Shown here piece by piece: positions 7,721 to 26,848 of a stretch of 64,000 nucleotides of DNA. The notes beneath the pieces were generated by a model, which worked only from the letters and a program-made list of their open reading frames with translations, was not told where the DNA came from and made no database searches. Location: positions 24,414,225 to 24,478,224 of the forward strand of contig CM120640.1 in the NCBI GenBank assembly GCA_051362555.1, read 5' to 3'. The position numbers and the translations under genes are program-made. The first letter of the stretch is position 1. The number at the start of each line of letters is the position of its first letter. The stretch is from Lingula anatina (Eukaryota > Animalia > Brachiopoda).

Positions 7721-8747
7721 ATCATTTTGAATGGTATGTCACGATTATTGTTTAAGAATGTGTGTTGTCGAGGAATTTATAGTGCAATCAATTTAGCATA
7801 TATGATAGCATGCCTAATATATTATTGTAAAACTATCCAGCATTCAGTTATTTGCGAAATATCTGAATTAATTACCTCTCCAGTTTTGACATTATTAGTA
7901 GTTGTAGTAGTAGTAGTAGTAGTAATAGTAAAGAGGCCTTATTTGTAAATAATTCTTTACTGGAATGTTTAGAAAAATATGTCAGTGAGGGCCAAGAATA
8001 AGATTTTGGTTTTCATTTGAGACTCGGAGGGTAATAGTAGACTTAAAAATTATAAGTATAGTGCTGTTGTGTCGACGTCTTACTAGTAATACCAGTCTGT
8101 AGCATACAAAAGACAAATGCACTTGGCAAAAGACTTTGGGGGTGATTCGAAAAATCAATTGTCAACCTGGGGCGCAACACTAGCCAGCGACACTGTCTTA
8201 TGTACAAACATTTTTTCTTTACCTATAGAAATGGGTGAAATGGGCTGTATCTTAATAATTGTGTAGGCCTTTATTGAAGCATGGTTTTATTCCTCAATGT
8301 TGCTGGCAGGAAGAAAGGGTTCAGGTGTCGAGAAATAATTATCAAGGGAACAAATTGATTTCATCAGTACTAGTATTTCATGGTACAGCCATAACAACCG
8401 GTTAAAAAGGCCAGAGAAATAACCCTTTAGCTGGAGATCCTAACATCTGTTTATGTAAATTATGGATGATATTAAAGGGTCAAATCACCAGTTACATACC
8501 ACAATATCACTGAGTAGACCTACCAGTACTTGAATCCGTGTGTAACACAGGTACAAACTTTAACACCTGAAAGAGCCTTGGAAAACGATTGGACATTACT
8601 ATTTAATCATTTTCCATTAAGTCACAAAGAGACATACAGTAGTATGTCCATTGCAGATTTGTTGCAAATCATTTTATTTTCAGATGTACCTTTTATAGTT
8701 CAAAGTCCTATTGACATCAGTACAATCCATCAACACTAGCAGTCAAG

Positions 8748-11700
8748 ATGTCATTTATGAGAACAACAAAGGCAAAGCGAGCAACACCAGCTCTAAGTCA
8801 TAAAAACAAAGTAAAGAAGAAGCCCAGAAAACCACAGTGGGATGTAAGTACAGGAGGTAGTGGTTTGATGAATAATTAATATTAGCATTTTCATGTTGTA
8901 TTTTTCAAATATCAGTAGATAATTAAATTGAACTAAAAATTAAAAGGCAATATTACGGGAAAATAATGAGTGTTTTATGTGAAATCGCAAACATTTTTTT
9001 CGGATTATACAACTTTTGTATAAAAATTTGAATTAACAAACTAATATAAAAATTTGAAATAACAAACTAAAAGACTGTACAGATTTTTTTCCTTTTATAA
9101 AATTTTGGTTAAATTCACAATTTTTTTAGGATACTGTGAACGATCTAACTGTTTACAAAGCAAGTCCTGAGGAAGTTGTAAGTTTGATGATAAGTCATTT
9201 GAATTGAACAATATATAGTATAGTATATTAAGAAAATCAATTTTTGTTCCATTAAATTGGACTGTATTTATGCAAAATAATTCTTGCCAAATAGATCAGA
9301 AGAAAAAATAAAGCATTACAAACCATTTGATATAATTTGATACTATCACCAACTAGCATTAACAGTGAGTTGAGGAAATAAGTATTTTAATTTGCCCTCT
9401 ATTTAGCAACGAAGAAAGGCAGTTCACAAGTCGAATAATTTAGAGGAAGTTAAGGAAGAACTCCAAAAAAAATCTATTGCAGCTGGTGAGTGAATCTTTG
9501 GGATTTTCAAGTATTTTTTCAAGTTTGATGGTATGTCCTTATGTAATGTGCTCGACTATATCTATAGCATTTTAAATCTTTGCTTTTACTTTTATCCTAA
9601 GCTTTATATTTTTTTACGTTTTTCAAGCAAGGAGAAGGCAGAATTCAAGCAGGACCTCACAGCAATCTGCCTTAATAAAAGAAGTGTTATATGATCAAAG
9701 CCAGGTAAAGTATATGCCTTGAAAGTACATACCATTAATAGTTTCAAGCAATTTTCTGGACATGGACTGATGTATGCTAGTAGGAAGCAGCAACATCAGC
9801 TTTATTGGATATATGGCAAATAAAATAACAGGCTTATCAAATGCTTTTAATACGAGCATTGTTTTCATTTATGGTCACAATAAAATAGTTGCATTGTGAT
9901 TGGTGATATTTTGTATGGTACTGATTGTTAGAACATCTTTATTTTAATAAAATATATTGAAAGTTTAACTTTACAAAGTAATAGTCTGATATACCTGTTG
10001 ATATTTAAATGACTTCATTTTAATATGTTTTTATATTCAAGTTGTTGGATGTGCTCTCGAGATCAGATAGAACTATGGCAGTCGTGAAAGACTTGTTTGG
10101 AGATGCACCACCAGTAAGATTGATAAAAAAATATTTTTTCAACTTCTCATTTTCATACATCATGAAACCCAGTAAGGATCCTTTTGTAAATGAACTGGAT
10201 AGATATGTTTTTGAAAAATGTGTAGCTGTAACAAAGTGACAGAATAAGTTTAAATGATATTTTTGACAGATGTTTTATTTTATGAAATTTTTCAGCGTTA
10301 CAAAGGTATTCCCAACATAACATGTGTACCAGACCAGACAAACCAATCCTTAATGAACAGGTAATGTGAATCACTTGTTTTTCGATAAGCAATGTTTTAA
10401 ATTTTAAACATACATATAGATCATATAGATGGGCGAAACATCAACATCATTCCACGTTTGATTTAAAGGTGAAACTACTTTAATTCACAGCTTCATTTTC
10501 TGAAAAAAAAATGTTATTTGCATTATTTTTTACGTTTAGGTCAGAAGGACTGATATATCAGGAACCAGAAATATCCACCCAGATGGACATGCTCAGTCAG
10601 TCTCATATGGATAAAAGTGCACTGAATGAAATGGATGAGGAACAGTCTGAAGGTACCAAAAGATTTTATTTCACAATTCAAACAAAAAAAAAAACATTTG
10701 GTAAAGCTTTTCTTGTGTGATTATTGGCCCTGAAAAGAGCCTTTAAGAGCAATGATCTACTGAGGAGAGTAGATTCTGGGCTGGGTTTGCAGGAGCATTT
10801 CCATCATTTGTTGCTTTGAGTATTTGGCATGATCATAATAAAGTTGTCGAAGCTGCTCTGCTACAACTATCCTTGTCTTCAAGGTGTAAGTTAAAGACTT
10901 CTTCTTCAGTTTCTTGCCCCTGGAGTAGCGTACTTTCATGTCCTGCAATTTACTGTCAATGAGCTTGATCTGAGCCAAAGCTTTGAAGAACTTGGTTTCT
11001 GTTTCAAAGTACAGGGCAGGTAGTGTGTCAAGTGGGATCCCTGACAACGCAGAGTTCTTGCTTTCCATCCTTTCTGTTGAGTTACAATGTATTTGGTGTT
11101 CTCTTAATGATGGTCAGAGAATGAGTATCGAATAAGGAGAATCCAGCTTTATATATACAGCTGGATTCAAGAAATGACACCTGGTGCCATCCCAAGGGAA
11201 AAATCTTGGTTGCTATGGAAATAGAGTAGGTGTCACTGGGTATAACAGGTTGACCTGAGGAGATGATAATGATCAGAAGTTAATGAGTTAATGACCACTA
11301 TAAGGACTAATCAGGACTGTTGTAGCAGTAACCAGATTATTAACTAATTCATTAAACTGGAGAAAAGAACCAGAGGTTAAGTGGGATCTGATATCAGATA
11401 AAGTTAAATGTTTTCCAGACCAAATCTGATAAAATTTATTCAGGAATTCTTAATGTTAACAAAAATCCTTAGGTATTTGGCATCATTCTTTTGGCCTCAG
11501 GCAAGATTTTGCCTAGTAACGGCTGATGCTTATCCCAGCTGAGCAATGATCCACAGCTACCCATTCACTTGTTGTTATTAATTATCTAAGGTGGACATGT
11601 TAAGGGTATATTTGTACTGTCCATGTTTAAATCTGTACCTTAGTCTTTCCTCTCTCTTCCAGCAGTCTTGTGCTGTTAGCAGTTATCAAAATGTGTCATA

Positions 11701-14700
11701 TGATAAAATTAACATTTATACTATTGTGTAACTGCTAGAAGACCCTGGGAAAGAGCACACATTTCTGTGTCTACATCACCTGAAAAACTACTGATCATTC
11801 CTTATTTATACCTTTAATAAAACAATAAAGGCCTTCAAATAAAAGTACTAGTACCTGATTTTGATACTTTTTTACCAGAATTATACAATTAGACAGTGTA
11901 AACATTACAGGGAACAATTAAATCAAAATTCTTCAGTTCAAAATGGCATAAAACATCAAATCTAAGTGCAGGGATGGGTTGCACAGTGATTCAAGAGAGA
12001 AAAGAATGTTTTTTCAAGAAAATTTTATTTGGGGGATAAAATTCCAGAAAGGATAATTTTTACTTTTATGATGGGAAGTGTTTCCAAGGCAACCAAGATT
12101 GTGTTGTCACTGCTAGTTAGGTTGAAAATCAGTGCATAGAACTATTATCTTTGATGCTGTTATGTTTTTAAATGTTATATTTATTCAATGATAAAAATTA
12201 TGTCAAATATACTTATTCCATTTTTTCTTATGTTAAAATTGCAACAGTAAATCAACATGACAATATCAAATGTTTTAATGAAAATAATTTGACTTATTGA
12301 ACTAATGCTTAATTTTTCTTTAAATAAAAACCACTCGACAATATATTAAAATCACGGTTAAGATTTTATATTATTAGTATGACTGACATTTCTTGCCTGA
12401 GAACAAGTGATATCTGCTTACTGCTGTGAAATTTTCTTCCATCAGCAGTGAAGGTTTTTTTTTTCTTTTTTTGTCATACAATTGAACATTTCTTTTCTAG
12501 ACGAGATGTGGGTTATAACTTATAGTATTGAATATCATAGGCTCCATTCAGAATAGGGGATTAACTAGTGCGAGTGTCAAATATGGCCAACCCACTTGAG
12601 TACTTCCCCACGGGATATCTGTTCATTGTCTATTAGTGGATTAGCCTTGTTGTGGGTCGCCATATTTGACCCTCAGACTAGTGAGTCCCCTATTCTGAAT
12701 GGGGCCATATTTAAGGTAAGATATTTTAGGACCAGGATTAATAAATTTCCTTTTTAAAATGATAATAAAAGGTGTGATTTGACAACAGATTATAATTTTA
12801 AAATTTTTTTCCGTAATTATATGTTTACTAAATCATTGAATTAAAAATGGAATATCACAATGAATCAGAATACATGGAAGGGTTGAATAGTAGGGCATGA
12901 GTAGGAAAATATTGCTTTATTCACAAATAAATTTCATTTTGGTGGGTTATCATTTTTGAGTACTTAAATAAAATTAAAGAAAAAAAAATTGACATTTGGT
13001 AAAGCTTTTCTTGTGTGATTATTGGCCCTGAAAAGGGCCTTTAAGAGCAATGATCTGCTGAGGAGAGTAGATTCTGGGCTGGGTTTGCAGGAGCATTTCC
13101 ATCATTTGTTGCTTTGAGTATTTGGCATGGTCATAATAAAGTTGTCGAAGCTGCTCGGCCACAACTATCCTTGTCTTCAAGGTGTAAGTTAAAGACTTTT
13201 TCTTCAGTTTCTTGCCCCTGGAGTAGCGCACTTTCATGTCCTGCAATTTACTGTCAATGAGCTTGATCTGAGCCAAAGCTTTGAAGAACTTGGTTTCTGT
13301 TTCAAAGTACAGGGCAGGTAGTGTGTCAAGTGGGATCCCTGACAGCACAGAGTTCTTGCTTTCCATCCTTTCTGTTGAGTTACAATGTATTTGGTGCTCT
13401 CTTAATGATGGTCAGAGAATGAGTGTGGTAAGAAGGAGAATCCAGCTTTATATATCCCGCAAAGCTACTAGTACTGATCTAGCTTCAAGAAATGACACCT
13501 GGTGCCTTCCCAGGGAAAAATCTTGGTTGCTATGGAAATAGAGTAGGTGTCACTGGGTATAACAGGTTGACCTGAGGAGATGATAATGATCAGAAGTTAA
13601 TGAGTTAATGACCACTATAAGGACTAATCAGGACTGTTGTAGCAGTAACCAGATTATTAACAAATTCATTAAACTGGAGAAAAGAACCACAGGTAAAGTA
13701 GGATCTGATATCAGATAAAGTTAAATGTTTTCCAGACCAGATCTGATAAAAAGTATTCAGGAATTCTTAATGTTGACAAAAGCCCTCGGGTTATTGGCAT
13801 CATTCTTTTGGCCTCAGGCAAGATTTTGCCTGTTAACAGCTAATGCTTATCCAAACTGAGCAATGGTCCACAGCTACCCACTCACTTGTTGGTATTAATT
13901 ATCTAAGGTAGACATGTTAAGGGTATATTTGTACTGTCCATGCTTAAATCTGTACCTTAGTCTTTTCTTCTCTCTTCCAGCAGTCTTGTGATGTTAGCAG
14001 TTATCAAAATGTGTCATATAATAAAATTAACATTTATACTATTGTGTAACTGCTAGAAGACCCTGGGAAAGAGTACAAATTTCTGTGTCTACATCACCTG
14101 AAAAACTACTGATCATTCCTTATTTATACCTTTAATAAAACAATAAAGGCCTTCAAAGAAAAGTACTAGTACCTGATTTTGATACTTTTTTACCAGAATT
14201 ATACAATTAGACAGTGTAAACATTACAGGGAACAATTAAATCAAAATTCTTCAGTTCAAAATGGCATAAAACATCAAATCTAAGTGCAGGGATAGGCCGC
14301 ACAGTGATTCATGTATAGAAAAGAATGATTTTTCAAGAAAATTTTATTTGGGGGGATAAAATCCCAGAAAGGATAATTTTTACTTTTATGATGGGAAGTG
14401 TTTCCAAGGCAACCAAGATTGTGTTGTCACTGCTAGTTAGGTTGAAAATCAGTGCATAGAACTATTATCTTTGATGCTGTTATGTTTTTAAATGTTATAT
14501 TTATTCAATGATAAAAATTATGTCAAAATATACTTATTCCGTTTTTTCTTATGTTAAAATTGCAACAATAAATCAACATGACAATATCAAATGTTTTAAT
14601 GAAAATAATTTGACTTATTGAACTAATGCTTAATTTTTCTTTAAATAAAAACCACTCGACAATATATTAAAATCAAAGTTTAAGATTTTATATTATTAGT

Positions 14701-17700
14701 ATGACTAACATTTCTTGCCTGAGAACAAGTGATATCTGCTTACTGCTGTGAAATTTTCTTCCATCAGCAGTGAAGGTTTTTTTTTTCTTTTTTGTCATAC
14801 AATTGAACATTTCTTTTCTAGACGAGATGTGGGTTATAACTTATAGTATTGAATATCATAGGCTCCATTCAGAATAGGGGATTAACTAGTGCGAGTGTCA
14901 AATATGGCCAACCCACTTGAATACTTCCCCACGGGATATCTGTTCAGTGTTTATTAGTGGATTAGAAGGCAAGCTTTGTTGTGGGTCGCCATATTTGACC
15001 CTTAGACTAGTGAGTCCCCTATTCTGAATGGGGCCATATTTAAGGTAAGATATTTTAGGAACAGGATTAATAAATGTCCTTTTTAAATTGATGATAAAAG
15101 GTGAGATTTGACAACAGATTATAATTTTTAATTTTTTTTTCGTAATTATATGTGTACTAAATCATTGAATTAAAAATGGAATATCACAATGAATCAGAAT
15201 ACATGGAAGGGTTGAATAGTAGGGCATGAGTAGGAAAATATTGCTTTATTCACAAATAAATTTCATTTTGGTGGGTTATCATTTTTGAGTACTTAAATAA
15301 AATTAAAGAAAAAAAAATTGACATTTGGTAAAGCTTTTCTTGTGTGATTATTGGCCCTGAAAAGGGCCTTTTTGAGCAATGATCTACTGAGGAGAGTAGA
15401 TTCTGGGCTGGGTTTGCAGGAGCATTTCCATCATTTGTTGCTTTGAGTATTTGGCATGGTCATAATAAAGTTGTCGAAGCTGCTCTGCCACAACTATCCT
15501 TGTCTTCAAGGTGTAAGTTAAAGACTTTTTCTTCAGTTTCTTGCCCCTGAGGTAGCGCACTTTCATGTCCTGCAATTTACTGTCAATGAGCTTGATCTGA
15601 GCCAAAGCTTTGAAGAACTTGGTTTCTGTTTCAAAGTACAGGGCAGGTAGTGTGTCAAGTGGGATCCCTGACAGCACAGAGTTCTTGCTTTCCATCCTTT
15701 CTGTTGAGTTACAATGTATTTGGTGCTCTCTTAATGATGGTCAGAGAATGAGTGTGGAAAGAAGGAGAATCCAGCTTTATATATCCCGCAAAGCTACTAG
15801 TACTGATCTAGCTTCTAGAAATGACACCTGGTGCCTTCCCAGGGAAAAATCTTGGTTGCTATGGAAATAGAGTAGGTGTCACTGGGTATAACAGGTTGAC
15901 CTGAGGAGATGATAATGATCAGAAGTTAATGAGTTAATGACCACTATAAGGACTAATCAGGACTGTTGTAGCAGTAACCAGATTATTAACAAATTTATTA
16001 AACTGGAGAAAAGAACCACAGGTAAAGTAGGATCTGATATCAGATAAAGTTAAATGTTTTCCAGACCAGATCTGATAAAAAGTATTCAGGAATTCTTAAT
16101 GTTGACAAAAGCCCTCGGGTTATTGGCATCATTCTTTTGGCCTCAGGCAAGATTTTGCCTGTTAACAGCTAATGCTTATCCAAACTGAGCAATGATCCAC
16201 AGCTACCCACTCACTTGTTGTTATTAATTACCTGAGGTGGATATGTTAAGGTTATACTTGTACTGTCCACACTTAAATCTGTACCTTAGTCATTTCTTCT
16301 CTTATGACTTTTATGCTATTGTGAAACAGCTAAAAGACCCTGGGAAAGAGTATAAACTGTGGCAATTTATTCTGCAAAGCTATCCGTCTTTCCTAATTCA
16401 GACAATAAAACCGCTCAAATAAAAGAACCTGATTTTGATATTTTTACTAGAATTATACTAGAAGACATGGTGTTGTAAACATAACAGAAAACAATTAAAT
16501 CAAATTGTTCAGTTCAAAATGGCATAAAACAGCAAATCTAAGTGCAAGGATGGGCCACACAATGTACCATGAAGAGAAAACAATATTTCAAGAAATTTTT
16601 GATTTAGGGTATAAAACCACAGAAAGGATAAATTAAACATTTATGACAGAGTCTTTCCAAGGCAACCAATATTGTGTTGTCACCTTTCGTTAGGTTGAAA
16701 GTAAATGTGTAGAACTATCATCTATGATACTGTTATGTTTTTAAAAGTCATATTTATTCAGAAATAAAAATTATGTCGAAATAAAATTATTCTATTTTCT
16801 ACTCATATTAAATTTTCAACAATAAATTAGCATGACTTCATATTTAAACTTTTTAACAACAATAATTTGACTTATTGAACTAATGCTTTATTTTTTTAAT
16901 AAAAGCCTTTCAACAATATATTAATCAAGGTGTTGATTTTATATTATTATTATGACTAACATGTCCCGGCGTTGTGGGGGAATTTTCTATATCTGCTTGT
17001 TACTTTGAAAGTTTCCTACATTGGCAGTAAAGGTTGAAGTTTCTCCACTCTTTTTATACAATTGCACATTGCTTTTCTGGTCTGGATGTGGGGTATCTTA
17101 TTGAATGTGATGTTCAAGTTAAGATATTTTTGGAGCTGGACTTAATAAACATCCTTCATAAATTGATAAAAAAGAGGTGTCATTTGACAACAGATTAAAA
17201 TATTTTTCCATAATTTTAATGTTCAATAAATCATTGAATTAGAAATGGAATAACAAAATGAATTGAAATATATGGAAGGGTTGAAAAATTGGCCATGAGT
17301 AGGAAAATGTCGCTTTATTCTCAAATAATTTCATTTTGGTGGATTAATTCATTTTTTGAGTACGTAAATAAATGTAGAAAAAATATGACATTTGGTACAG
17401 CTTTTCTTGTGTGATTATTGGCCCTGAAAAGGGCCTTTAAGAGCAATGATCTACTGAGGAGAGTAGATTCTGGGCTGGGTTTGCAGGAGCATTTCCATCA
17501 TTTGTTGCTTTGAGTATTTGGCATGGTCATAATAAAGTTGTCGAAGCTGCTCGGCCACAACTATCCTTGTCTTCAAGGTGTAAGTTAAAGACTTCTTCTT
17601 CAGTTTCTTGCCCCTGGAGTAGCGCACTTTCATGTCATGCAATTTACTGTCAATGAGCTTGATCTGAGCCAAAGCTTTGAAGAACTTGGTTTCTGTTTCA

Positions 17701-20700
17701 AAGTACAGGGCAGGTAGTGTGTCAAGTGGGATCCCTGACAACGCAGAGTTCTTGCTTTCCATCCTTTCTGTTGAGTTACAATGTATTTGGTGCTCTCTTA
17801 CTGATGGTCAGAGAATGAGTGTGGAAAGAAGGAGAATCCAGCTTTATATATCCCCCAAAGCTACTAGTACAGATCTAGCTTCAAGAAATGACACCTGGTG
17901 CCTTCCCAGGGAAAAATCTTGGTTGCTATGGAAATAGAGTAGGTGTCACTGAGTATAACAGGTTGACCTGAGGAGATAATAATAATCAGAAATTAATGAG
18001 TTAATGACTACTCTGAGGACTAATTTGGACTGTTACAAGTAGTAACCAGGTAATTAACTAATCTACAATTTGAATTTAGAACCAGAGGTTAAGTAGGATC
18101 TGATATCAGATCTGCAATTCTGCAATTCTCAATATTAAGGAAAGTCCCCAGGTAATTGGCAGCATCCTTTTGGCCTTGGGCAAGATTTGGCCTGTTAACT
18201 GCTAATTTTTATCCAAACTAGGCAATGGTCCACAGCTCCTCATTAACTTGTGGTTTTAATAATCTTAGCTAGACATTTTAAAGGTATACTATCCACATTT
18301 TAATCTCTACCAAAGTCATTTTTTGTCATTTCAAGACCCAGCTGTCTTGTAGCATTAGCAGTTACACAGTTATATAGAACAAATGCAAGTAACAATTATA
18401 CAATTTTGTAAAAGCTGGAAGACCTCTAGAAAATAGTACAAATTTTATACCTAATTTGACTTACTGAGTTCATGTTTTGCAAAATAAATTTAATGTAGAA
18501 ATGTTCAACAGTATATTAAGATCAATATTATAAATAAAGACTGGCATATCCATGCTTTGCCCTATCTTATTATAATATTTTCATCCATCAGCAGTTAACA
18601 TTAGAGTTACTTCGCCCTTTTAATCATTCAATTGCACATTTCTTTTCTGGACTGGATGTGAGGTACTGTATTGAATATCAAAATAAAGTTTACATATTTT
18701 TGGGACTTACAGAAATTTCCTCCTTAAAAATAAAATGACATTGAACAACATTATGTTACACTGTGGACAAATATTTTCATAATATTTAGGTTAAGCGAAA
18801 CATCAATTATAATACACTTCCGAGTTATCATTTATCTAAACTTTTGCAGTGTCGACTTTTGGACAAATAAGGGAACGACAAATTTCAAAATTGAAATGAT
18901 TTATTGTTGATTAATCTTGCAATGAAAACCTTTCCTCAAGGTATCTGTGTACTAGTACTTTACCAAGCAAATGAGCCAAACTTGCACATAAATTATGGAC
19001 ATTATCAACTTCAGTATTTTGACTATGGCTAAGAAAGGCATTACTTAGCCTTCACAGAAAGTCATGACTGATGATATATCATTGATTGTTATAAGTTGAA
19101 AATAAATTTGAATGCATTCGGATAATGTTTTAACTGGTATAAGCAATCACACTGTTGGTTAATGGCTGATATATTTATTTTAGGAAGTAATTGGTTTGAG
19201 GAGTAACTTATTGACCTCTGAATAAGTAATTGGGCTAAGGAGAGGTTAATCCACCCCTGCTTGGGTTATTAAGCACTCAGTAATGTAATTAACCTGTTAA
19301 CTACTGATGATTTTCATCTCCTAAGGTGAACTACTCAGTACCTGTGACACCTACTCTATCTCCATAGCAACCAAGATTTTCCCCTGGGATGGCACCAGGC
19401 GTTATTTCTTGAAGCTAGCTGTATATATAAAGCTGGATTCTCTTCCTTTCCACACTCATTCTCTGACCATCAGTAAGAACACAGCAAATACCTTGTACCT
19501 CATCAGATAGGATGGACAGAAAGAACTCTGTATTATCAGTGATCCCACTTGACACACTACCTGTCCAGTACTTTGAAACAGAAATCAAGTTCTTCAAAGC
19601 TTTGGCTCAGATCAAACTCATTGACATTAATTTGCAGGACATGAAAGTTCGCTACTCCAGGGGAAAGAAACAGCAAAAGAGGTCTATAACGTACAACTTG
19701 AGGACAAGGATAGTTGTTGCCGAGCAGCTTCGACAGCTTTATCACAACCATGCCAAATATTCTAAGCAAAAAATGCTGGCGATGCTTCTGCAAACCCAGC
19801 CCAGAATCTACTCCCCTCAGTAGTATTCTGCAAAAAAAAAGGCCCTTTTCAGGGCCACTAAACTGATCCAGGAAAGCTATACCACATATAGTTTTGTTTT
19901 TTAAAAAAAGAAAAGTAGTAAAAGTGATAACCTTAACAAGTAAAGTACAGCTTCCTTTCTGTTGCTTATTAATATATATTGCTCTCCTTTATGTTACTTT
20001 ATATTTTATTAAACTATAAAGCCCCTCAGGGGCAACTGATTTAAAGGATATATGAATTTAGCATTGATTATATTGTTTGATGGTTGTTTGTTTTGTTGTG
20101 GCAGAAGTTCTAGTCCTAGGCCATTTGACTTTTTTAAATAGTGTTTGTTATGAGTATTTTATATTAATTTTTTGTAGAAGAAAGCACAGACTTACAATAC
20201 CAACCTCAGATTGACTTGGACAGGTTTAGACATTTTCTTGAGAAGGAGAGGGCTGACCCTCAAGAGCTGAGTACTATCCAGGGAAGTCAAGTCACTGCAG
20301 TGCCACTGTCTGTGCAGCAAGGCCAAGCATCCAGTACATTTGTCCAAGGAAAAAAACCAGGTGAAATTTTTTCGCGTGATTTTTGAAAAAAAGAGAGCTT
20401 TTTTAACATTCTAGTTTATTCAAACTTTGAAAAAGTGTTGCTTTTTAAAACAAACATATAGATTTATTGTGTTATTAAATTGACTAAATATAAGTTCCTA
20501 CAGTTCCTGCCACATCTGGTGGGCCATCACACTCACTGCCAACTGGAGATGAGGCAGTGTATACACCCAAACATACTGGTGATAGCTCGGGCGCTATCAA
20601 TGGAACAGAAAAAGCTAAGAGAAGCAAAAGTAGGATGAACAAGTCCCAGTCCCCTCTGAATGTATCAGGACTGACAAATATCACAGCACTTAAGCAGGTC

Positions 20701-23700
20701 AGTGTAATGTATTGTTTAGGTGAACTGAAAACCAAGGTTGTATGAATAAGAATTTTCCTTGACATGAAATAGTTCAAATTTAAGTAGATTGAAGCTTGTG
20801 ATAAGGTTTAATTCAATTATAGTAACATGACAGCATAAATAACAAGGGTTTAAGGATTACCTTCATACTGCTGGTTTGCATAAAATCTTTTACCATTTTA
20901 TATTTATTTTGATTGAAATAAATTGCCAGTAACAAATTCCACGACATAACAAGATTGGGGTTGAAGTTTAAAATCATTTTGGACAAAAAACTATGAAATC
21001 AGCTGTGTTAGATATGGTATGTGACTGTTGGTTTGACTGCAGGTATTGGTATCACTGGAGAATGAGCTGGCAGACTATGAACAGAAGACTGGCAGACAGC
21101 CTGCAGCAGAGAGATTGTACACTGACACATTCTCTGGGTACACAGTGGCCATTGTAGATGCAGTGACAAGACTGGTTAGATATCTCAAACAGGTATACTG
21201 GGTCACTATTCTGAAAGGAAAATATTGGTATTGCCAGTGCTCACTAGTCATTTTGCCTAAATCTCTTACAGCATTCTGATTAATTTGATATTATGTTAAC
21301 AGTCATAATGAATATATTTTATAATTAAACAGATGGAAAAAAGTCCCGTTAAAAAAAGCTATCCTGTTTATATTTGCTATGAATTTGGCATGATATCAGA
21401 GCTATTTAGTTACTTCTGCTATAGAATATTAAAGGATTTACTCTATTTTAAGACTGAAATCCAACTAGCCGCAGAGATGACAGTTAGAGAGCAGCTGTCA
21501 CAAGAAGTGCAGCATTTAAACCAGCTAGTTGATGCAGTAACTTCAGTGAGTTACAGTATTTATAGTGCAAATTTGCATGTTGATAATATATTTTAAAGTC
21601 TTCTTATTTTTAAGTCTTTCTATTGGTAAATTTCCAATCACATGTATAATAAATTTTGTGTTTATTTCCACAATTTTTGGTTAAATTGTGGTTGTGTTAC
21701 ACTTTTCTTTTCAAAATTAATCTTGAAGTCATGTCTGATTTTAGGACATCATCAGTACACAAGAGGAGAATGTCAAAATAAGAGAAGAATTCGCCAAGTA
21801 CAAGCAAAACACAGATGAGCAGTTTAACTATCTTAAGGTTTGATTTTCCAAGTTCTTTGAACTAATTAAGTTTTTGATTTTCGATCTTATGAAGTTTTTT
21901 TTAATGTAGCAGGTGTTAAAGCAGAGTTATCATTTTTCAGAAATAAAACTTTGTGATATATATTATTATAGATATTATAGATTATATATTATTATAAACA
22001 AACAGGAGTTTTTTTATGTCATTCTTGCCTGAAATAAATTTAAGAAGCTTTACTATATTTACGATCTAGAACATGTATTCAGAGATGAACAAAAGACCCA
22101 TGAATTTATCAACTCCATCAACTGTAAACAGTGGAAGGAGGAGGTCGGAAAATAGACAGGGTAGGCAGATTGACTTCTCAGATCAAGACTAGGAATAACT
22201 CAAGTACTCAGCAAAATTTCATGGTCTATCAGTCATTTCTCTTCAGTCATAGCCATGGTCATCTTTTTCACACTTCTTTATTATTGAAGAATTTTATCAG
22301 TTGACTTTACTGTAAGCCTTTTTCTCTGCCCTGTTTATTGAAGATTCCCCTTCAGTTGATGAGCTAGCCAATCAGATGACAGAGGTTTTGAGTTCAGGGC
22401 CACATCAGAAGAGACCCGCTCCTCCAGTGATATCTACAGCAGCAACCACAGCAAGAGTGGATTCTTATGGTAATAAAAGCTGGAATCCAAAAATGACATC
22501 TTACACTGACAAAATTTCTAATATTTATTTTGTGGAACTTTGTAGAATTTTTCAATTTGATTGCAGAATTCTCATCTTGTGTTGTAAAGTAAGTCATAAG
22601 TATAATATTTATAGCTCACACCATGGATGCAACTTCAACCCATGCTTGACGTATGTACTTCCAGGATATAACAGTGCTATGCCAGGGACTGGTAATCTTC
22701 CCACCTGGTCCTCTGACAGCACCACAGCCCACGTCATTGTCCCGAGACCAGCGCCCCTAGTGACGCTGGACCATACTCATGGACATCAGCCACAACAACA
22801 GCCTTTGCAGACAGTACAGTCAACAGTGCGTGGACCCAGTCCTTCCCTTTCCCAGCAAAATATTTCAATGCCAGAGTATGCCTCACTTCCAGTCTCACAG
22901 CCTCAACAGTCCACACAGCAGTGGCGGCCTCTGAAGGAAGTCACCAACACTCAGCACCTGCAGGCTGCAGTGACTGAGGAGTCCAGGGAAAAGCTATTTA
23001 AGTCACAAATTTTACAAATAGCACAACAGGTATGGAATGTTGTTGAAGTATACCTTATTTAATATGGTTTGATTCATTTAATATTGTTGGTCTTCTCTGT
23101 GTCAGTTGATTGTAGGAAAATAGAACAAGTGGGGACTTATAAGAATTTTTTATATCCAATGCATTTGACATCATCAGCATTTTTAAATTGTTTGAATACT
23201 ATTTATGTGCTGTTTTAAATGTATGTGTGTACCACCACTAGGTTGCAGTGCTGAATGAACAGCACAGCCAAGCACAGGACAGACTCCAGCAGCTACAGAG
23301 GGGTCTTTCACCAACTGGCCAGCTACAAGAGAATGGTCAAACATTAGACAAGGCAACAGCTCAGGGACAACAGTCTAATCTCCAGGTAAGCTGTCTAGCA
23401 CAGAAGCAATTTCATACTGAATGCTTTAGAAAACTTAAGAATTTTTGCTAAAACAAACAAAGAAGTGCAAGAGTGCACCAAGATGCTTGCTAGTTTTAAA
23501 AAAGCCTTAGTCTTTAGGGAGTGATTTACATAAGATTGGCTTTGTTGATGATGTTTTTTACATGAATCTGTGGGTAGGTTCTTGCATATTAATGTGGAAA
23601 AGATGTAGCACAACAAAGGCGTTTTTATTCAAGAGACATGTTTTAACATTTTACAGTTTGTTTTGCTTCTGTTACAGACAATGAAACCAAATGCTGGTCA

Positions 23701-24867
23701 TGGTGACAAAATGGAGAAAGAAAATCCATCTTTGCAGATACAGGAGTTAAATAAACAGCTTAAAGAAGCACAACAGAAAATGGCAGTTATATTGCAACAG
23801 CAGACAGTAAGTATTTAGTTTAACTTAATGTTAATAGAAAATATTTTAGAAATCTAATTTGGCAATATACATTCTTCTAAAAAAAGTTTTTAAACACCCC
23901 AGTCTTCATTTTCCTACATTTAGGTTAATCTGTAGTCCCTCTTGATTCATTAGACAGTATTTTAAGTGGACTTAAAGCTGCTCAGTGACATGGCTAGCAT
24001 TACAAAATTGTTAGATTTATTTTTTAACATGTTTTTACCGTGTTTTAGAGAGCAGCCGTATCTCCTCCCATATCCCCTATACCAACAGAGAGTGCTAGGA
24101 ACACACTGCAAACACCTACTTACTCTGTGCAGCCTCAGGTAAGAATAGATAATTTAAAAAAAAGGGAAAACAAGTTCCATTGACAAGATGTTGTTTAAAG
24201 ATATTTGTTTATCAATGTGTGAATGATTTTTTCTTTCTGAAGTAGGAAGCCAATCGGCTAAATAACTGCAATAAATAATAAGTGTTTGTTCATTTCATGA
24301 GAGATAATATGTGTAGTATAACACTTTATTTTCACCTTCAGTGTTTTAAAATGTTTAAAAAGTACCCCATTATCTTTTGCAGCAGACATTACAACCTGGT
24401 CATAAAGGAATAACTGTAGCATTACCAAGGATAGAAGAGCTGGAGATATCTGCCACAAGTACGCCTTCTCCAAAGTCAGTTGAAAGCAGACGCAGCGGGT
24501 TGGTATATATATATTTTCTCATTTATGAAATAAAATAGTTTGTATATACCACGTCAGAAGTGTGTTATTTGACTTTGTATTTTGGAGGTTTGAAATTGTG
24601 AGTTATTTGAAAAGGAAATATTTCATATTTCACTGTTATGTTTTCATAAGTTTTCCAGTGAAATGGTTCAGTATGATTATTAGAATTCGTAGACTAAATG
24701 TCTGTCTGTGTAATCTGTGTACAACAACCCAAGCTGGTTACAATCCATCAATTTACTAGTAATACCCTCAATTCAGATGTCAAAAAATGTTCACCTAATT
24801 TTGCAGGATGCATGGACAAGTTCCTATAGTGTCAGTGTACAGTGGCCAAGGCAACCATTTTAGCTGA
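8748..24867 (+). CDS. SPICE1: Spindle and centriole-associated protein 1-like (SPICE1/CCDC52); exons include 8748-8843, 9130-9177, 9407-9485, 9628-9704, 10042-10113, 10296-10360, 10540-10652, [9.5-kb intron], 20178-20360, 20504-20697, 21043-21192, ~21453-21545, ~21745-21837, ~22070-22160, ~22344-22469, ~22665-23028, ~23242-23385, ~23678-23806, ~24049-24138, ~24383-24500, ~24807-24867
   Basis: MSFMR...KVKKKPRKPQWD|DTVNDLTVYKASPEEV|QRRKAVHKSNN, LIKEVLYDQSQ|LLDVLSRSD..KDLF, and ENELADYEQKTGRQ...FSGYTVAIVDAVTRLVRYLKQ|TEIQL match recalled human SPICE1 blocks ([32 protein letters not shown]...LCRLVRYLKESEIQL). The last exon's frame and stop (24863 or 24867) are uncertain. Confidence 0.85.
10705..10741 (-). 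terminator. Histone-type 3' stem-loop (10726-10741) plus purine-rich downstream element (10705-10715), copy 1
   Basis: Minus strand reads TTAAA-GGCTCTTTTCAGGGCC-AATAA-TCACA-CAAGAAAAGCT. The T variant leaves a U-G pair in the stem. Confidence 0.85.
10757..11068 (-). CDS. Nested intronless 103-aa basic protein of unknown function, copy 1
   Basis: Intact ATG-to-TAG ORF conserved in five copies, with TATA box upstream and histone-type stem-loop 15 nt after the stop. Confidence 0.85.
   Translation of the reverse strand: MESKNSALSGIPLDTLPALYFETETKFFKALAQIKLIDSKLQDMKVRYSRGKKLKKKSLTYTLKTRIVVAEQLRQLYYDHAKYSKQQMMEMLLQTQPRIYSPQ
11118..11222 (-). promoter_or_regulatory. Core promoter of copy 1: X-box (11209-11222), TATA box, TCATTC initiator
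   Basis: Minus strand reads ATTTCCATAGCAAC ... TATATATAAAG ... CTCATTCT about 30 nt downstream of TATA. Confidence 0.7.
12540..12706. mobile_element. 167-bp MITE, PIF/Harbinger (Tourist)-like
   Basis: About 55-bp imperfect TIRs (GGCTCCATTCAGAATAGGGGA... / ...TCCCCTATTCTGAATGGGGCC), flanked by a 3-bp ATA duplication. It is absent from the paralogous spacer near 17105. Confidence 0.8.
13003..13039 (-). terminator. Histone-type stem-loop (13024-13039) plus downstream element, copy 2
   Basis: AAA-GGCCCTTTTCAGGGCC-AATAA-TCACA-CAAGAAAAGCT on the minus strand. Confidence 0.85.
13019..13366 (-). CDS. Nested small-protein gene copy 2; stop-loss allele (115 aa), possibly non-functional
   Basis: TAG>CAG extends the ORF through the stem-loop (QIIALKGPFQGQ*). 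The protein is otherwise nearly identical to copies 1, 3 and 4. Confidence 0.7.
   Translation of the reverse strand: MESKNSVLSGIPLDTLPALYFETETKFFKALAQIKLIDSKLQDMKVRYSRGKKLKKKSLTYTLKTRIVVAEQLRQLYYDHAKYSKQQMMEMLLQTQPRIYSPQQIIALKGPFQGQ
13416..13539 (-). promoter_or_regulatory. Core promoter of copy 2: X-box (13526-13539), TATA, initiator
   Basis: ATTTCCATAGCAAC, TATATAAAG and CTCATTCT on the minus strand. Confidence 0.7.
14861..15035. mobile_element. Second copy of the Tourist-like MITE (175 bp), co-duplicated with the unit
   Basis: Same TIRs, ATA flanks and insertion context as 12540-12706. Confidence 0.8.
15332..15368 (-). terminator. Histone-type stem-loop (15353-15368) plus downstream element, copy 3
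   Basis: CAAAAA-GGCCCTTTTCAGGGCC-AATAA-TCACA-CAAGAAAAGCT on the minus strand. Confidence 0.85.
15384..15695 (-). CDS. Nested intronless 103-aa protein, copy 3
   Basis: Intact ORF with the same promoter and 3' signals as the other copies. Confidence 0.85.
   Translation of the reverse strand: MESKNSVLSGIPLDTLPALYFETETKFFKALAQIKLIDSKLQDMKVRYLRGKKLKKKSLTYTLKTRIVVAEQLRQLYYDHAKYSKQQMMEMLLQTQPRIYSPQ
15745..15868 (-). promoter_or_regulatory. Core promoter of copy 3: X-box (15855-15868), TATA, initiator
   Basis: Same motifs as copy 2. Confidence 0.7.
17399..17435 (-). terminator. Histone-type stem-loop (17420-17435) plus downstream element, copy 4
   Basis: TTAAA-GGCCCTTTTCAGGGCC-AATAA-TCACA-CAAGAAAAGCTG on the minus strand. 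Confidence 0.85.
17451..17762 (-). CDS. Nested intronless 103-aa protein, copy 4
   Basis: Intact ORF with the same promoter and 3' signals as the other copies. Confidence 0.85.
   Translation of the reverse strand: MESKNSALSGIPLDTLPALYFETETKFFKALAQIKLIDSKLHDMKVRYSRGKKLKKKSLTYTLKTRIVVAEQLRQLYYDHAKYSKQQMMEMLLQTQPRIYSPQ
17812..17935 (-). promoter_or_regulatory. Core promoter of copy 4: X-box (17922-17935), TATA, initiator
   Basis: Same motifs as copies 2 and 3. Confidence 0.7.
19358..19463 (+). promoter_or_regulatory. Core promoter of copy 5: X-box 19358-19371, TATA 19422-19432, TCATTC 19456-19461
   Basis: ATCTCCATAGCAAC fits RTHNYYATRRNAAC; TATATATAAAG follows; the PyCATTC cap-site motif lies about 30 nt downstream of TATA. 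Confidence 0.7.
19512..19823 (+). CDS. Nested intronless 103-aa protein, copy 5 (inverted, diverged paralogue)
   Basis: 20 amino-acid differences from copy 1 (83/103 identical by hand count), with no indels and the same start and stop positions. Confidence 0.85.
   Translation: MDRKNSVLSVIPLDTLPVQYFETEIKFFKALAQIKLIDINLQDMKVRYSRGKKQQKRSITYNLRTRIVVAEQLRQLYHNHAKYSKQKMLAMLLQTQPRIYSPQ
19841..19878 (+). terminator. Histone-type stem-loop (19841-19856) plus downstream element (19868-19878), copy 5
   Basis: AAAAA-GGCCCTTTTCAGGGCC-ACTAA-ACTGAT-CCAGGAAAGCT, 17 nt after the stop. Confidence 0.88.
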
Positions 24868-26848
24868 GGAATTTGGAGAAGAGTTTGTGTTAAACTTTGC
24901 CAGTCAATTTTCTCACAACAAAAAGACCTAGAGATCTGTTAAAAAGTTTCCCTGAATATTTAAGGAGATCGCACAGACAAGTTAAAGTGGAACATGCTAG
25001 TGTGTTGTATATAATATGAAAGTATCCCCATACAAGACATCTCCATTGTTATTTATCACAAAAACAAATTTAAAATCAGAATGAAAAATAAATAACCCAG
25101 TATGAATTGTAAATATTCATATTTTATGATTCTTCAGTAATTCTATGTTGGATTTAACCAAAAAATAGACAAAAGATGTAATATACTTGTAATTTTCTTT
25201 TTTTTTTTTGAATATCACTATGTTTTGCACATTTGCTGTTTTTTATATTTCTAAAAGTAGAGCAATGCTACAGATTTCATTGCCAATTATTGTTTGTCAG
25301 AAGCATAATAAGCAGTATAATACATCAATATACTTAATATATTACTAAGTTCCAGTGGATTCTGAGTATCTCGGAATGTGTGAAATGGGATTTTGTTGTA
25401 AAATGAGCTCAATAAAAGTTCTCTTATTTGATGTGAAAGTATTTCAGGGAAACCATCACGTTGCTTTTTCCACGAAATTTGATTAATTTTTGTCCTGGAA
25501 GAGCTTCTTGAGTGTGTTTTGTCATAGGAAGTGAACGCCAATCCAAAAGTATGTTGGGCAGGGAGGAGACTCCCTGACACTTGGTCTCCTTTCACAAGAA
25601 AAAAGAAAGACAAATATCACTCAAAATATTATGTGCACAAAGTTGCTGCATATTTTTGCTTTATATGACCCATATATTTTATAATCACATTTGGGTTAAA
25701 GAAATCCGAAATATGTGGTTACATCATGCACATATTTTTGGTGGAATTATCTTGACATACAAAAAAAAATGAAAAAGTCAGTGACTTGCCTACCTACTTG
25801 GCATACATCTGGTGTGGAGTTCAATCCTTTGTTTGTAAGCTCAGGTTAATCAGTGTGTTTCTTTAGGTATACACTATCATCTGGTTTTCACTGTAAATAA
25901 AACTATAACCCGTTCTTGTCAAATTTGAGCTGTTTTTATTTATTTACAATATCACAGGGTAGTCTTTACTGATAAGCTGTCTCCAAAAATCTTAAGTCCT
26001 ATTACCTTTAAACCCACATACTGGTCACTTCAAGTGCAAAAAGATCTGTTAAAGTAACACATTTACAGAACCAAAATTTTCCCCTTGTGCAATAAAATAG
26101 GATCCCTATTTAAAAAAGAAACTTAATAAAGGGTCAAGTTCAACCAAGTTGGTACAAAGAATTTGACAACATGTCATTTTAGTAGGTTTGTTCGAGTTCT
26201 TTGATTGGCTTTAGTTCTCAAAAAAAGTGGCCAAAGACCATCATACATCATTTTTGAGAAAAAGTATAAAATTCATTTAAATTGTTGTTGTCGGTGTTTG
26301 ATGGTCCATGATTTTTCCTCATGGGCTTATACAAATCCAATACGATACTGAGATCAAATAATATAAAAAGTAAAACGTTGTTCATTTTTTCAAGAGCGCC
26401 TGATAAAAATTCTGCCAGATAGAGATATTAGTGACTAGTTATTTAAACAGTGACTGTCTTGTTCGGCCCATAACCTTTTCTAGCAATCATTAATGGTATA
26501 AAATACATGACTTTTGGGATCTAAGATTTAGCATTATTAAAAAACATAATTCAATTTACAATTTTTTTAAAAATGATCTCTGAAAAGAATTATTTGGGGT
26601 CTTTAGAAAAAGTCTGGTCTTTTTCTTTCTCCCAGTCCATCAGATGTCTCTTGAATATCCTTCAGGCAGCATCTAGATGAGTACCACAGGCTCAAACAAA
26701 TAATTTTACTATAGGCCTTCAGCTGTTGCTCCATCTCCCCCAAGCATTTATTTTCGGCATATGGCCCAGAAATCTTACATAATGAGAAATGATATTAGAA
26801 TTACTTTTTCAGTCAAGTAAACGAGGGTACACCTTAGAGCAGTGTGCC

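Follow-up and report, generated by a model that had tools for sequence, protein, structure and literature searches.

Can genes whose products are not histones carry the 3′ end that replication-dependent histone messages have? The question is raised by a 64,000-nt stretch of the genome of the brachiopod Lingula anatina (GCA_051362555.1, contig CM120640.1, positions 24,414,225 to 24,478,224, forward strand; hereafter the window), in which five small open reading frames (ORFs) are each followed by a hairpin and a purine-rich element resembling the histone downstream element (HDE). A first reading of the letters alone (the original prediction) had proposed that a non-histone gene family is processed here by SLBP and the U7 small nuclear RNA (snRNA), possibly for expression tied to the cell cycle or to the germline or embryo. 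We find that the histone stem-loop and purine-rich element on these non-histone genes are real and conserved across the family, and we assign a probability of roughly 0.75 to processing of the family's messages by SLBP and U7.

Five non-histone genes with a histone-type 3′ end

The genes and their signals lie in the window as follows (aa, amino acids; dN and dS, nonsynonymous and synonymous divergence; bit scores of stem-loops refer to the Rfam Histone3 model, RF00032).

10757..11068, minus strand: copy 1 ORF, 103 aa, intronless; 76.7 bits against a family profile that excludes the window proteins
13019..13366, minus strand: copy 2 ORF, 115 aa; the usual stop is now CAG and the frame crosses the hairpin
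15384..15695, minus strand: copy 3 ORF, 103 aa
17451..17762, minus strand: copy 4 ORF, 103 aa; predicted two-helix hairpin (residues 16-53 and 57-95)
19512..19823, plus strand: copy 5 ORF, 103 aa; inverted, older; 80% aa identity, dN 0.091 and dS 0.277 against copy 4
10726..10741, minus strand: copy 1 histone-type stem-loop, U-G at pair 4; 23.3 bits
13024..13039, minus strand: copy 2 stem-loop, within the extended ORF; 29.4 bits
15353..15368, minus strand: copy 3 stem-loop; 31.0 bits
17420..17435, minus strand: copy 4 stem-loop; 28.7 bits
19841..19856, plus strand: copy 5 stem-loop; 38.8 bits, above the gathering score
10705..10715, minus strand: copy 1 HDE-like purine-rich element
13003..13013, minus strand: copy 2 HDE-like element
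15332..15342, minus strand: copy 3 HDE-like element
17399..17409, minus strand: copy 4 HDE-like element
19868..19878, plus strand: copy 5 HDE-like element
17813..17850, minus strand: copy 4 promoter-like TATATAAA with CATTC start motif
11155, 13454 and 15783, minus strand, and 19424, plus strand: the same TATATAAA and CATTC layout in the other copies

All five intronless ORFs and all five hairpins are present as first described, and the ORFs are continuous both in the window and in intact homologous loci. The hairpin pattern GGYYYTTTTCAGRRCC has exactly five exact matches in the 64 kb, every one on the coding strand, where 0.10 matches are expected by chance; five were reached in none of 100 shuffles. 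Pattern matches and positions also bear out the spacing initially reported. The start of the hairpin lies 15 nt past the stop in copies 1, 3 and 4 and 17 nt past it in copy 5, and the purine-rich CAAGAAAAGCT or CCAGGAAAGCT follows 10-11 nt downstream of the hairpin. Copy 1 is the sole hairpin variant, with the anticipated U-G at stem position 4. The clustered, histone-gene-like promoter layout likewise proved constant in all five copies, with TATATAAA 32-33 nt upstream of CATTC and CATTC 55 nt upstream of the ATG.

The inverted copy 5, put at about 81% identity beforehand, is 81-84% identical to the other copies across about 620-670 bp, and its ORF is 88% identical. Copies 1-4 are 97-99% identical to one another and, judged by this likeness, are recent duplicates; the window therefore provides about two independent observations rather than five. 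In copy 2 the extended frame (13019-13057 region) terminates 5 nt past the stem, at the expected cut site, and this copy may be impaired.

The 3′ signal is conserved in distant relatives

Using a tight alignment of 16 family members, we fetched 35 homologous loci from metagenome contigs. Likeness between their proteins, compared for eight of them, is 39-81%, and their identity to the window copies is 21-31%. The hairpin lies 3′ of the gene in 32 of the 35 loci, at 25-39 nt past the stop in 23, 60-63 nt in six and 173 nt in two, and within a frameshifted read-through in one. In L025 the gene leaves the contig, and an upstream hairpin trails the apparent acidic tail of another copy; stops and frameshifts interrupt L034 and L035 close to the ORF start, and the hairpin is gone from both. 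Across the loci, 34 hairpins were found on the coding strand and none on the opposite strand (0.7 expected), and the Rfam Histone3 model matched at E<0.5 in 19 of 20 and 13 of 15 loci (32/35).

Beyond the positions fixed by the search rule (G1, G2, U6, A11, C15 and C16), A(-2), A(-1), C5, loop U1, U3 and C4, G12 and G14 were invariant in all 35 distinct elements. Loop position 2 varied among these, and the L036 element, found later, has A at loop position 4. SLBP reads the invariant flank, loop and C-G pair 5 positions, and the pattern of invariance in the relatives fits such contacts.

The downstream element is similarly constrained. It begins 12-15 nt past the stem in 33 of the 35 distinct elements, and a simpler purine motif was found in 25 and 26 of the 35 within two intervals covering the element site, compared with 0-7 of 35 in eleven control intervals. 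An upstream TATA-like box was present in 23 of 24 loci checked, and AATAAA within 200 nt downstream in only 6 of 31. Separately, L026 carries a second, imperfect hairpin immediately after the first (L026:589-620), in place of the downstream element.

The signal can also be recognized in proteins whose stop has been read through. Among 286 stored proteins, 37 have tails of at least 35 residues behind the core, and 21 of these 37 encode the element (500 shuffles: mean 0.24, maximum 2 of 37). The tails extend the element to clades without fetched DNA (P0013, P0084, P0061, P0227 and P0240). Homologues lacking the hairpin had been named at the outset as an outcome that would speak against the proposal; with the hairpin at 32 of 35 loci and the element in these 21 tails, the homologues show the opposite.

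In a large clade (the L001-L021 and L036 hairpins), stem pair 4 is constantly mismatched as C-A or A-C, whereas the remaining positions do not change. This clade is a natural test of SLBP tolerance, and from the sequences stem pair 4 looks dispensable.

An unnamed family of small, predicted two-helix proteins

The window proteins matched no Pfam family, and a single-sequence word search found no relative. A HMMER search of 1.84 billion representatives gave 87 matches at E<=0.001; the top match, P0001, was discarded as a 3816-aa repeat protein with only 43 residues aligned, and alignment A1 omits P0027, P0061, P0066 and P0080 for length. A profile of 84 sequences extended the set to 263 proteins (120 listed), and a profile of 24 distant members retrieved 80. 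The window proteins score 73-77 bits against a profile built without them, most members of which were originally found via the window query. The window protein belongs, as a divergent representative, to a large family that has no name. Among the matches listed, the organism-named members are all hypothetical mollusc proteins (Mya, Patella, Ruditapes, Mercenaria, Dreissena, Mactra and Mytilus), and 19 of 20 clusters looked up had no name. Five rows of the profile search bear the JGI label "mitochondrial fission protein ELM1", for which Pfam gave no support.

With an alignment as input, AlphaFold2 predicts two helices (16-53 and 57-95, 38-39 residues each) and no strands, with a mean confidence (pLDDT, predicted local distance difference test) of 89. 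Foldseek returned nothing at E<=0.001 against either the PDB or viral models. The top 50 rows of VIA-align reached Z 9.2-10.5 (best Z 10.5, root-mean-square deviation 4.4, 92 aligned), a range typical of this common hairpin arrangement. A sequence profile search of the PDB found no solved relative (single match, E 0.32), and the Atlas gave for the window protein only leads at 0.77-0.78. F27, Q33, R47, Y48, A51, Y61 and R64 are nearly invariant across the family. The window protein is basic (isoelectric point 9.9-10.3, 19 K+R), and an acidic tail is present in 118 of 209 family members of 95-135 aa. No histone family is among the 25 listed of 61 weak Pfam families for 84 members. Together with the two long predicted helices, this agrees with the initial view that the protein has no histone motif, and it speaks against a histone-fold or H1-type protein, an outcome named at the outset as one that would refute the proposal.

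The ORF is under purifying selection: dN is below dS in all four computable pairs, namely copy 4 with copy 5 and three pairs of relatives, a fifth pair (L001 with L012) being undefined.

One very slowly evolving subclade spans several bivalves (P0266, P0268-P0271, P0273, P0274, P0062 and P0282). Within it, the gene calls P0062 and P0282 depart from the subclade consensus at one shared point with a valine, as if entering a GT intron. The slow subclade may therefore be a version of the family whose genes contain an intron. As a speculative parallel to histones, the family may also have a highly conserved intron-containing variant (P0266/P0268/P0270/P0271/P0273).

Proposed processing and competing explanations

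We propose the following course of events. The genes, intronless and tandemly duplicated, belong to an unnamed animal family of small, predicted two-helix proteins. SLBP would bind the hairpin, the U7 small nuclear ribonucleoprotein would pair with the downstream element, and the RNA would be cut 4-5 nt past the stem instead of being polyadenylated. Afterwards, the mRNA would be translated and degraded in the manner of histone mRNAs. The most tentative part of this course of events, to which we give less than even odds, concerns the protein, a basic coiled-coil hairpin with an acidic tail in over half of the family: dividing or cleavage-stage cells would require it in large amounts, at the same time as histones. 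Genes take on such a layout, multicopy, intronless and without poly(A), where dividing cells have to make a lot of a protein fast. On this ground the role we consider most likely, at the same odds, would be that of a bulk partner of chromatin or histones in S phase or in cleavage embryos. Somewhat less likely again, and best regarded as speculative, is a broader proposal: in molluscs and related animals, the protein-coding mRNAs that lack poly(A) would include a second class, a multicopy family that is processed by SLBP/U7, is produced alongside histones and encodes a bulk partner, so far unrecognised, of chromatin or replication. The pathway behind the proposed steps, with SLBP on the hairpin, U7 downstream and a cut 4-5 nt behind the stem, is described in passages of PMC10730174.

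Several observations weigh against processing by SLBP and U7, or reduce what the counts above can carry. Scoring with Rfam Histone3, one of the checks suggested for the original prediction, supported it in part: all five window hairpins were matched (23.3-38.8 bits), with copy 5 alone reaching the gathering score of 34 and the other four at 23.3-31.0 bits; among the relatives, only 2 of 35 loci reached it. In predicted local folds, copy 1 favours an alternative helix over a 61-nt span, while copies 4 and 5 adopt the hairpin. An AATAAA lies 56-103 nt downstream of the hairpin in copies 1-4. The window copies have no acidic tail and sit on a long branch. All 35 loci were retrieved with a single tight query and some are near-duplicates, so that the number of independent cases is far below 35. 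The scan of 37 tails was designed after the DNA consensus had been seen, and some of its 21 positives duplicate fetched loci; an earlier, stricter peptide scan of whole proteins was not significant (7 of 210, shuffle mean 2.24, maximum 8). In 29 aligned elements, stem pair 4 is unpaired in 19 and compensatory in 3, and stem covariation did not exceed shuffles (209/500), four of the six pairs never varying. Support for the stem therefore comes from identity with the histone consensus and not from compensatory change.

Transcription data belong to the same side of the balance. The copy 4 stretch drew four RNA reads from one poly(A)-selected run (about 6% of the run was read), covering about 17442 to 17810; these may derive from any of copies 1-4. 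Their first mates lie on the plus strand, which in most stranded libraries indicates the gene's own strand. The reads span the interval from the hairpin to the predicted start, and none passes the hairpin, although four are too few for much weight. Three other RNA runs gave zero reads and were themselves without a positive control. The four reads show some transcription and no transcript end.

These points bear most directly on the best-surviving alternative, in which an SLBP-bound hairpin controls translation or storage, for example in oocytes, and the mature mRNAs are mostly polyadenylated downstream, giving dual ends of the H2A.X type. The AATAAA of copies 1-4, the origin of the only reads in a poly(A) library and the mismatched pair 4 of many relatives would all suit it, and bdelloid H2A variants are described as having both signals (in passages of PMC2642717). 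Two findings speak against it: the downstream element holds a constant distance from the stem in 33 of 35 elements, for which SLBP binding alone has no need, and AATAAA is scarce among the relatives (6 of 31 loci). So, for what four reads are worth, does the absence of any read past the hairpin. We regard dual ends as unlikely and prefer processing by SLBP and U7.

Much less probable is that a virus or transposon carries the gene as cargo and, through a histone-type end, has it expressed in dividing cells. The absence of introns, the copy number and the unrelated places of insertion (an intron of a SPICE1 homologue here, a 5S/U1 repeat in L036) are as such cargo would have them. However, viral contigs and phage records held no relative, although these libraries cover animal DNA viruses poorly; there was no viral fold match at E<=0.001; the family ORF accompanied none of 21 viral hairpin matches; and, by eye, no mobile-element gene appeared among ORFs of at least 100 aa in the 35 loci. 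A still slimmer chance is left to a 3′ end that was captured once from a histone gene and has since been a functionless passenger of duplication and gene conversion. Multiple tandem copies, near-identity of copies 1-4 and the lost stop of copy 2 are what passive carriage would predict, but the element was kept while proteins diverged to 21-31% identity, the spacers between stop and hairpin range from 15 to 173 nt, and the element is gone in the broken copies L034 and L035; passive carriage is already largely refuted by conservation. Least probable is that an ordinary histone-class gene encodes here a histone, H1 or protamine-like protein that has diverged strongly. Basic charge and a histone-like gene layout are outweighed by the lack of a Pfam match for the window proteins, of a histone family among the 25 listed of 61 weak families and of a solved relative by profile, and by a model, at pLDDT 89, of two long helices without strands.

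Genomic setting

The entire cluster lies within an inferred intron of another gene, deduced from flanking exon frames and splice sites.

10653..20177, plus strand: inferred GT...AG intron of a SPICE1 homologue, enclosing the entire cluster

This SPICE1 homologue is a multi-exon gene at 8700-25400 on the plus strand, with a Pfam SPICE match of 42.3 bits at 21046-21192. No histone genes were seen among the window ORFs or in the fetched homologous loci, and an Rfam scan found no U7 snRNA in the window.

A relative in a different setting is provided by a 15-kb contig of tandem 2.14-kb units (L036-L040; unit seen at L036:363-1897). Each unit contains a U1 snRNA gene, a family gene with hairpin and downstream element, and, on the other strand, a 5S ribosomal RNA (rRNA) gene. 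The contig is filed under a bacterial genome record and is evidently animal DNA (contamination). Linked 5S-U1 units occur in razor shells. Histone arrays of mussels are linked to 5S genes, as stated in passages of PMC13525598.

Elsewhere in the window, the spacers of copies 1-2 and 2-3 contain an element (12561-12707 and 14859-15037) that measures about 150 bp, has long inverted ends and resembles a small non-autonomous transposon. The final exons of a multi-PDZ gene, presumably MPDZ-like, lie at 830-2740 on the plus strand (Pfam PDZ, 76.8 bits at 2471-2731). A satellite array with a 142-bp unit (about 243 copies, 84% matches) fills 29391-64000 and extends beyond the window edge.

Comparison with known systems

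The family is apparently undescribed in the literature searched, a search with most subscription papers and all supplements outside it. Passages of a 2009 paper (PMC2642717) state that, among cellular mRNAs, a stem-loop end is known only from those of histones, and passages of another from the same year (PMC2781718) state that no non-histone target genes of SLBP are known. A 2026 preprint (10.64898/2026.08.17.745202) finds the histone stem-loop in 41-43% of SLBP-enriched regions in human cells, and its relevant passages name no non-histone gene with one. [quoted passage not shown]

If our reading is correct, a conserved non-histone family with the whole signal breaks the histone-only rule, and the family offers a natural test of the substrate needs of the SLBP/U7 pathway. 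It would also represent an overlooked protein made on the histone schedule, and a large gene family that is under-reported in poly(A)-selected mollusc transcriptomes.

On the protein side, the closest known counterparts are the mollusc hypothetical proteins of the same family (Mya MAR_017281/4/7, Patella SNE40_012764/7, Mercenaria LOC123553738, Ruditapes LOC132749842, Dreissena LOC127850545, and others in Mactra and Mytilus). Neighbouring locus tags suggest that the named members also form clusters, and the likeness is one of protein sequence; they have neither a family name nor a Pfam family, and the window copies are divergent from them and have no acidic tail. Set beside the ESCRT-III core, the ING N-terminal domain and prefoldin, all established families of coiled-coil hairpins, the window model reaches generic-hairpin scores in the top 50 rows of VIA-align (best Z 10.5).

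Among genes with a stem-loop end, the H2A.X-type genes and bdelloid H2Abd share the hairpin and a downstream AATAAA with copies 1-4 (passages of PMC2642717), but these genes encode histones, whereas the AATAAA is not conserved in the present family. The closest likeness is to metazoan replication-dependent histone genes. Shared features are the absence of introns, a TATA promoter, short untranslated regions and clustered or tandem copies; a 6-bp stem with a 4-nt loop soon after the stop and an A-rich 5′ flank; and a purine-rich element at a fixed distance, with 5S rRNA linkage in one relative. The sea-urchin HDE reads CAAGAAAGA. The family differs in that its product is a predicted two-helix coiled-coil protein without a histone domain, that stem pair 4 is often mismatched in relatives and that processing is here deduced from the signals. 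By this comparison, the genes appear to work like replication-dependent histone genes but fail histone membership on their protein.

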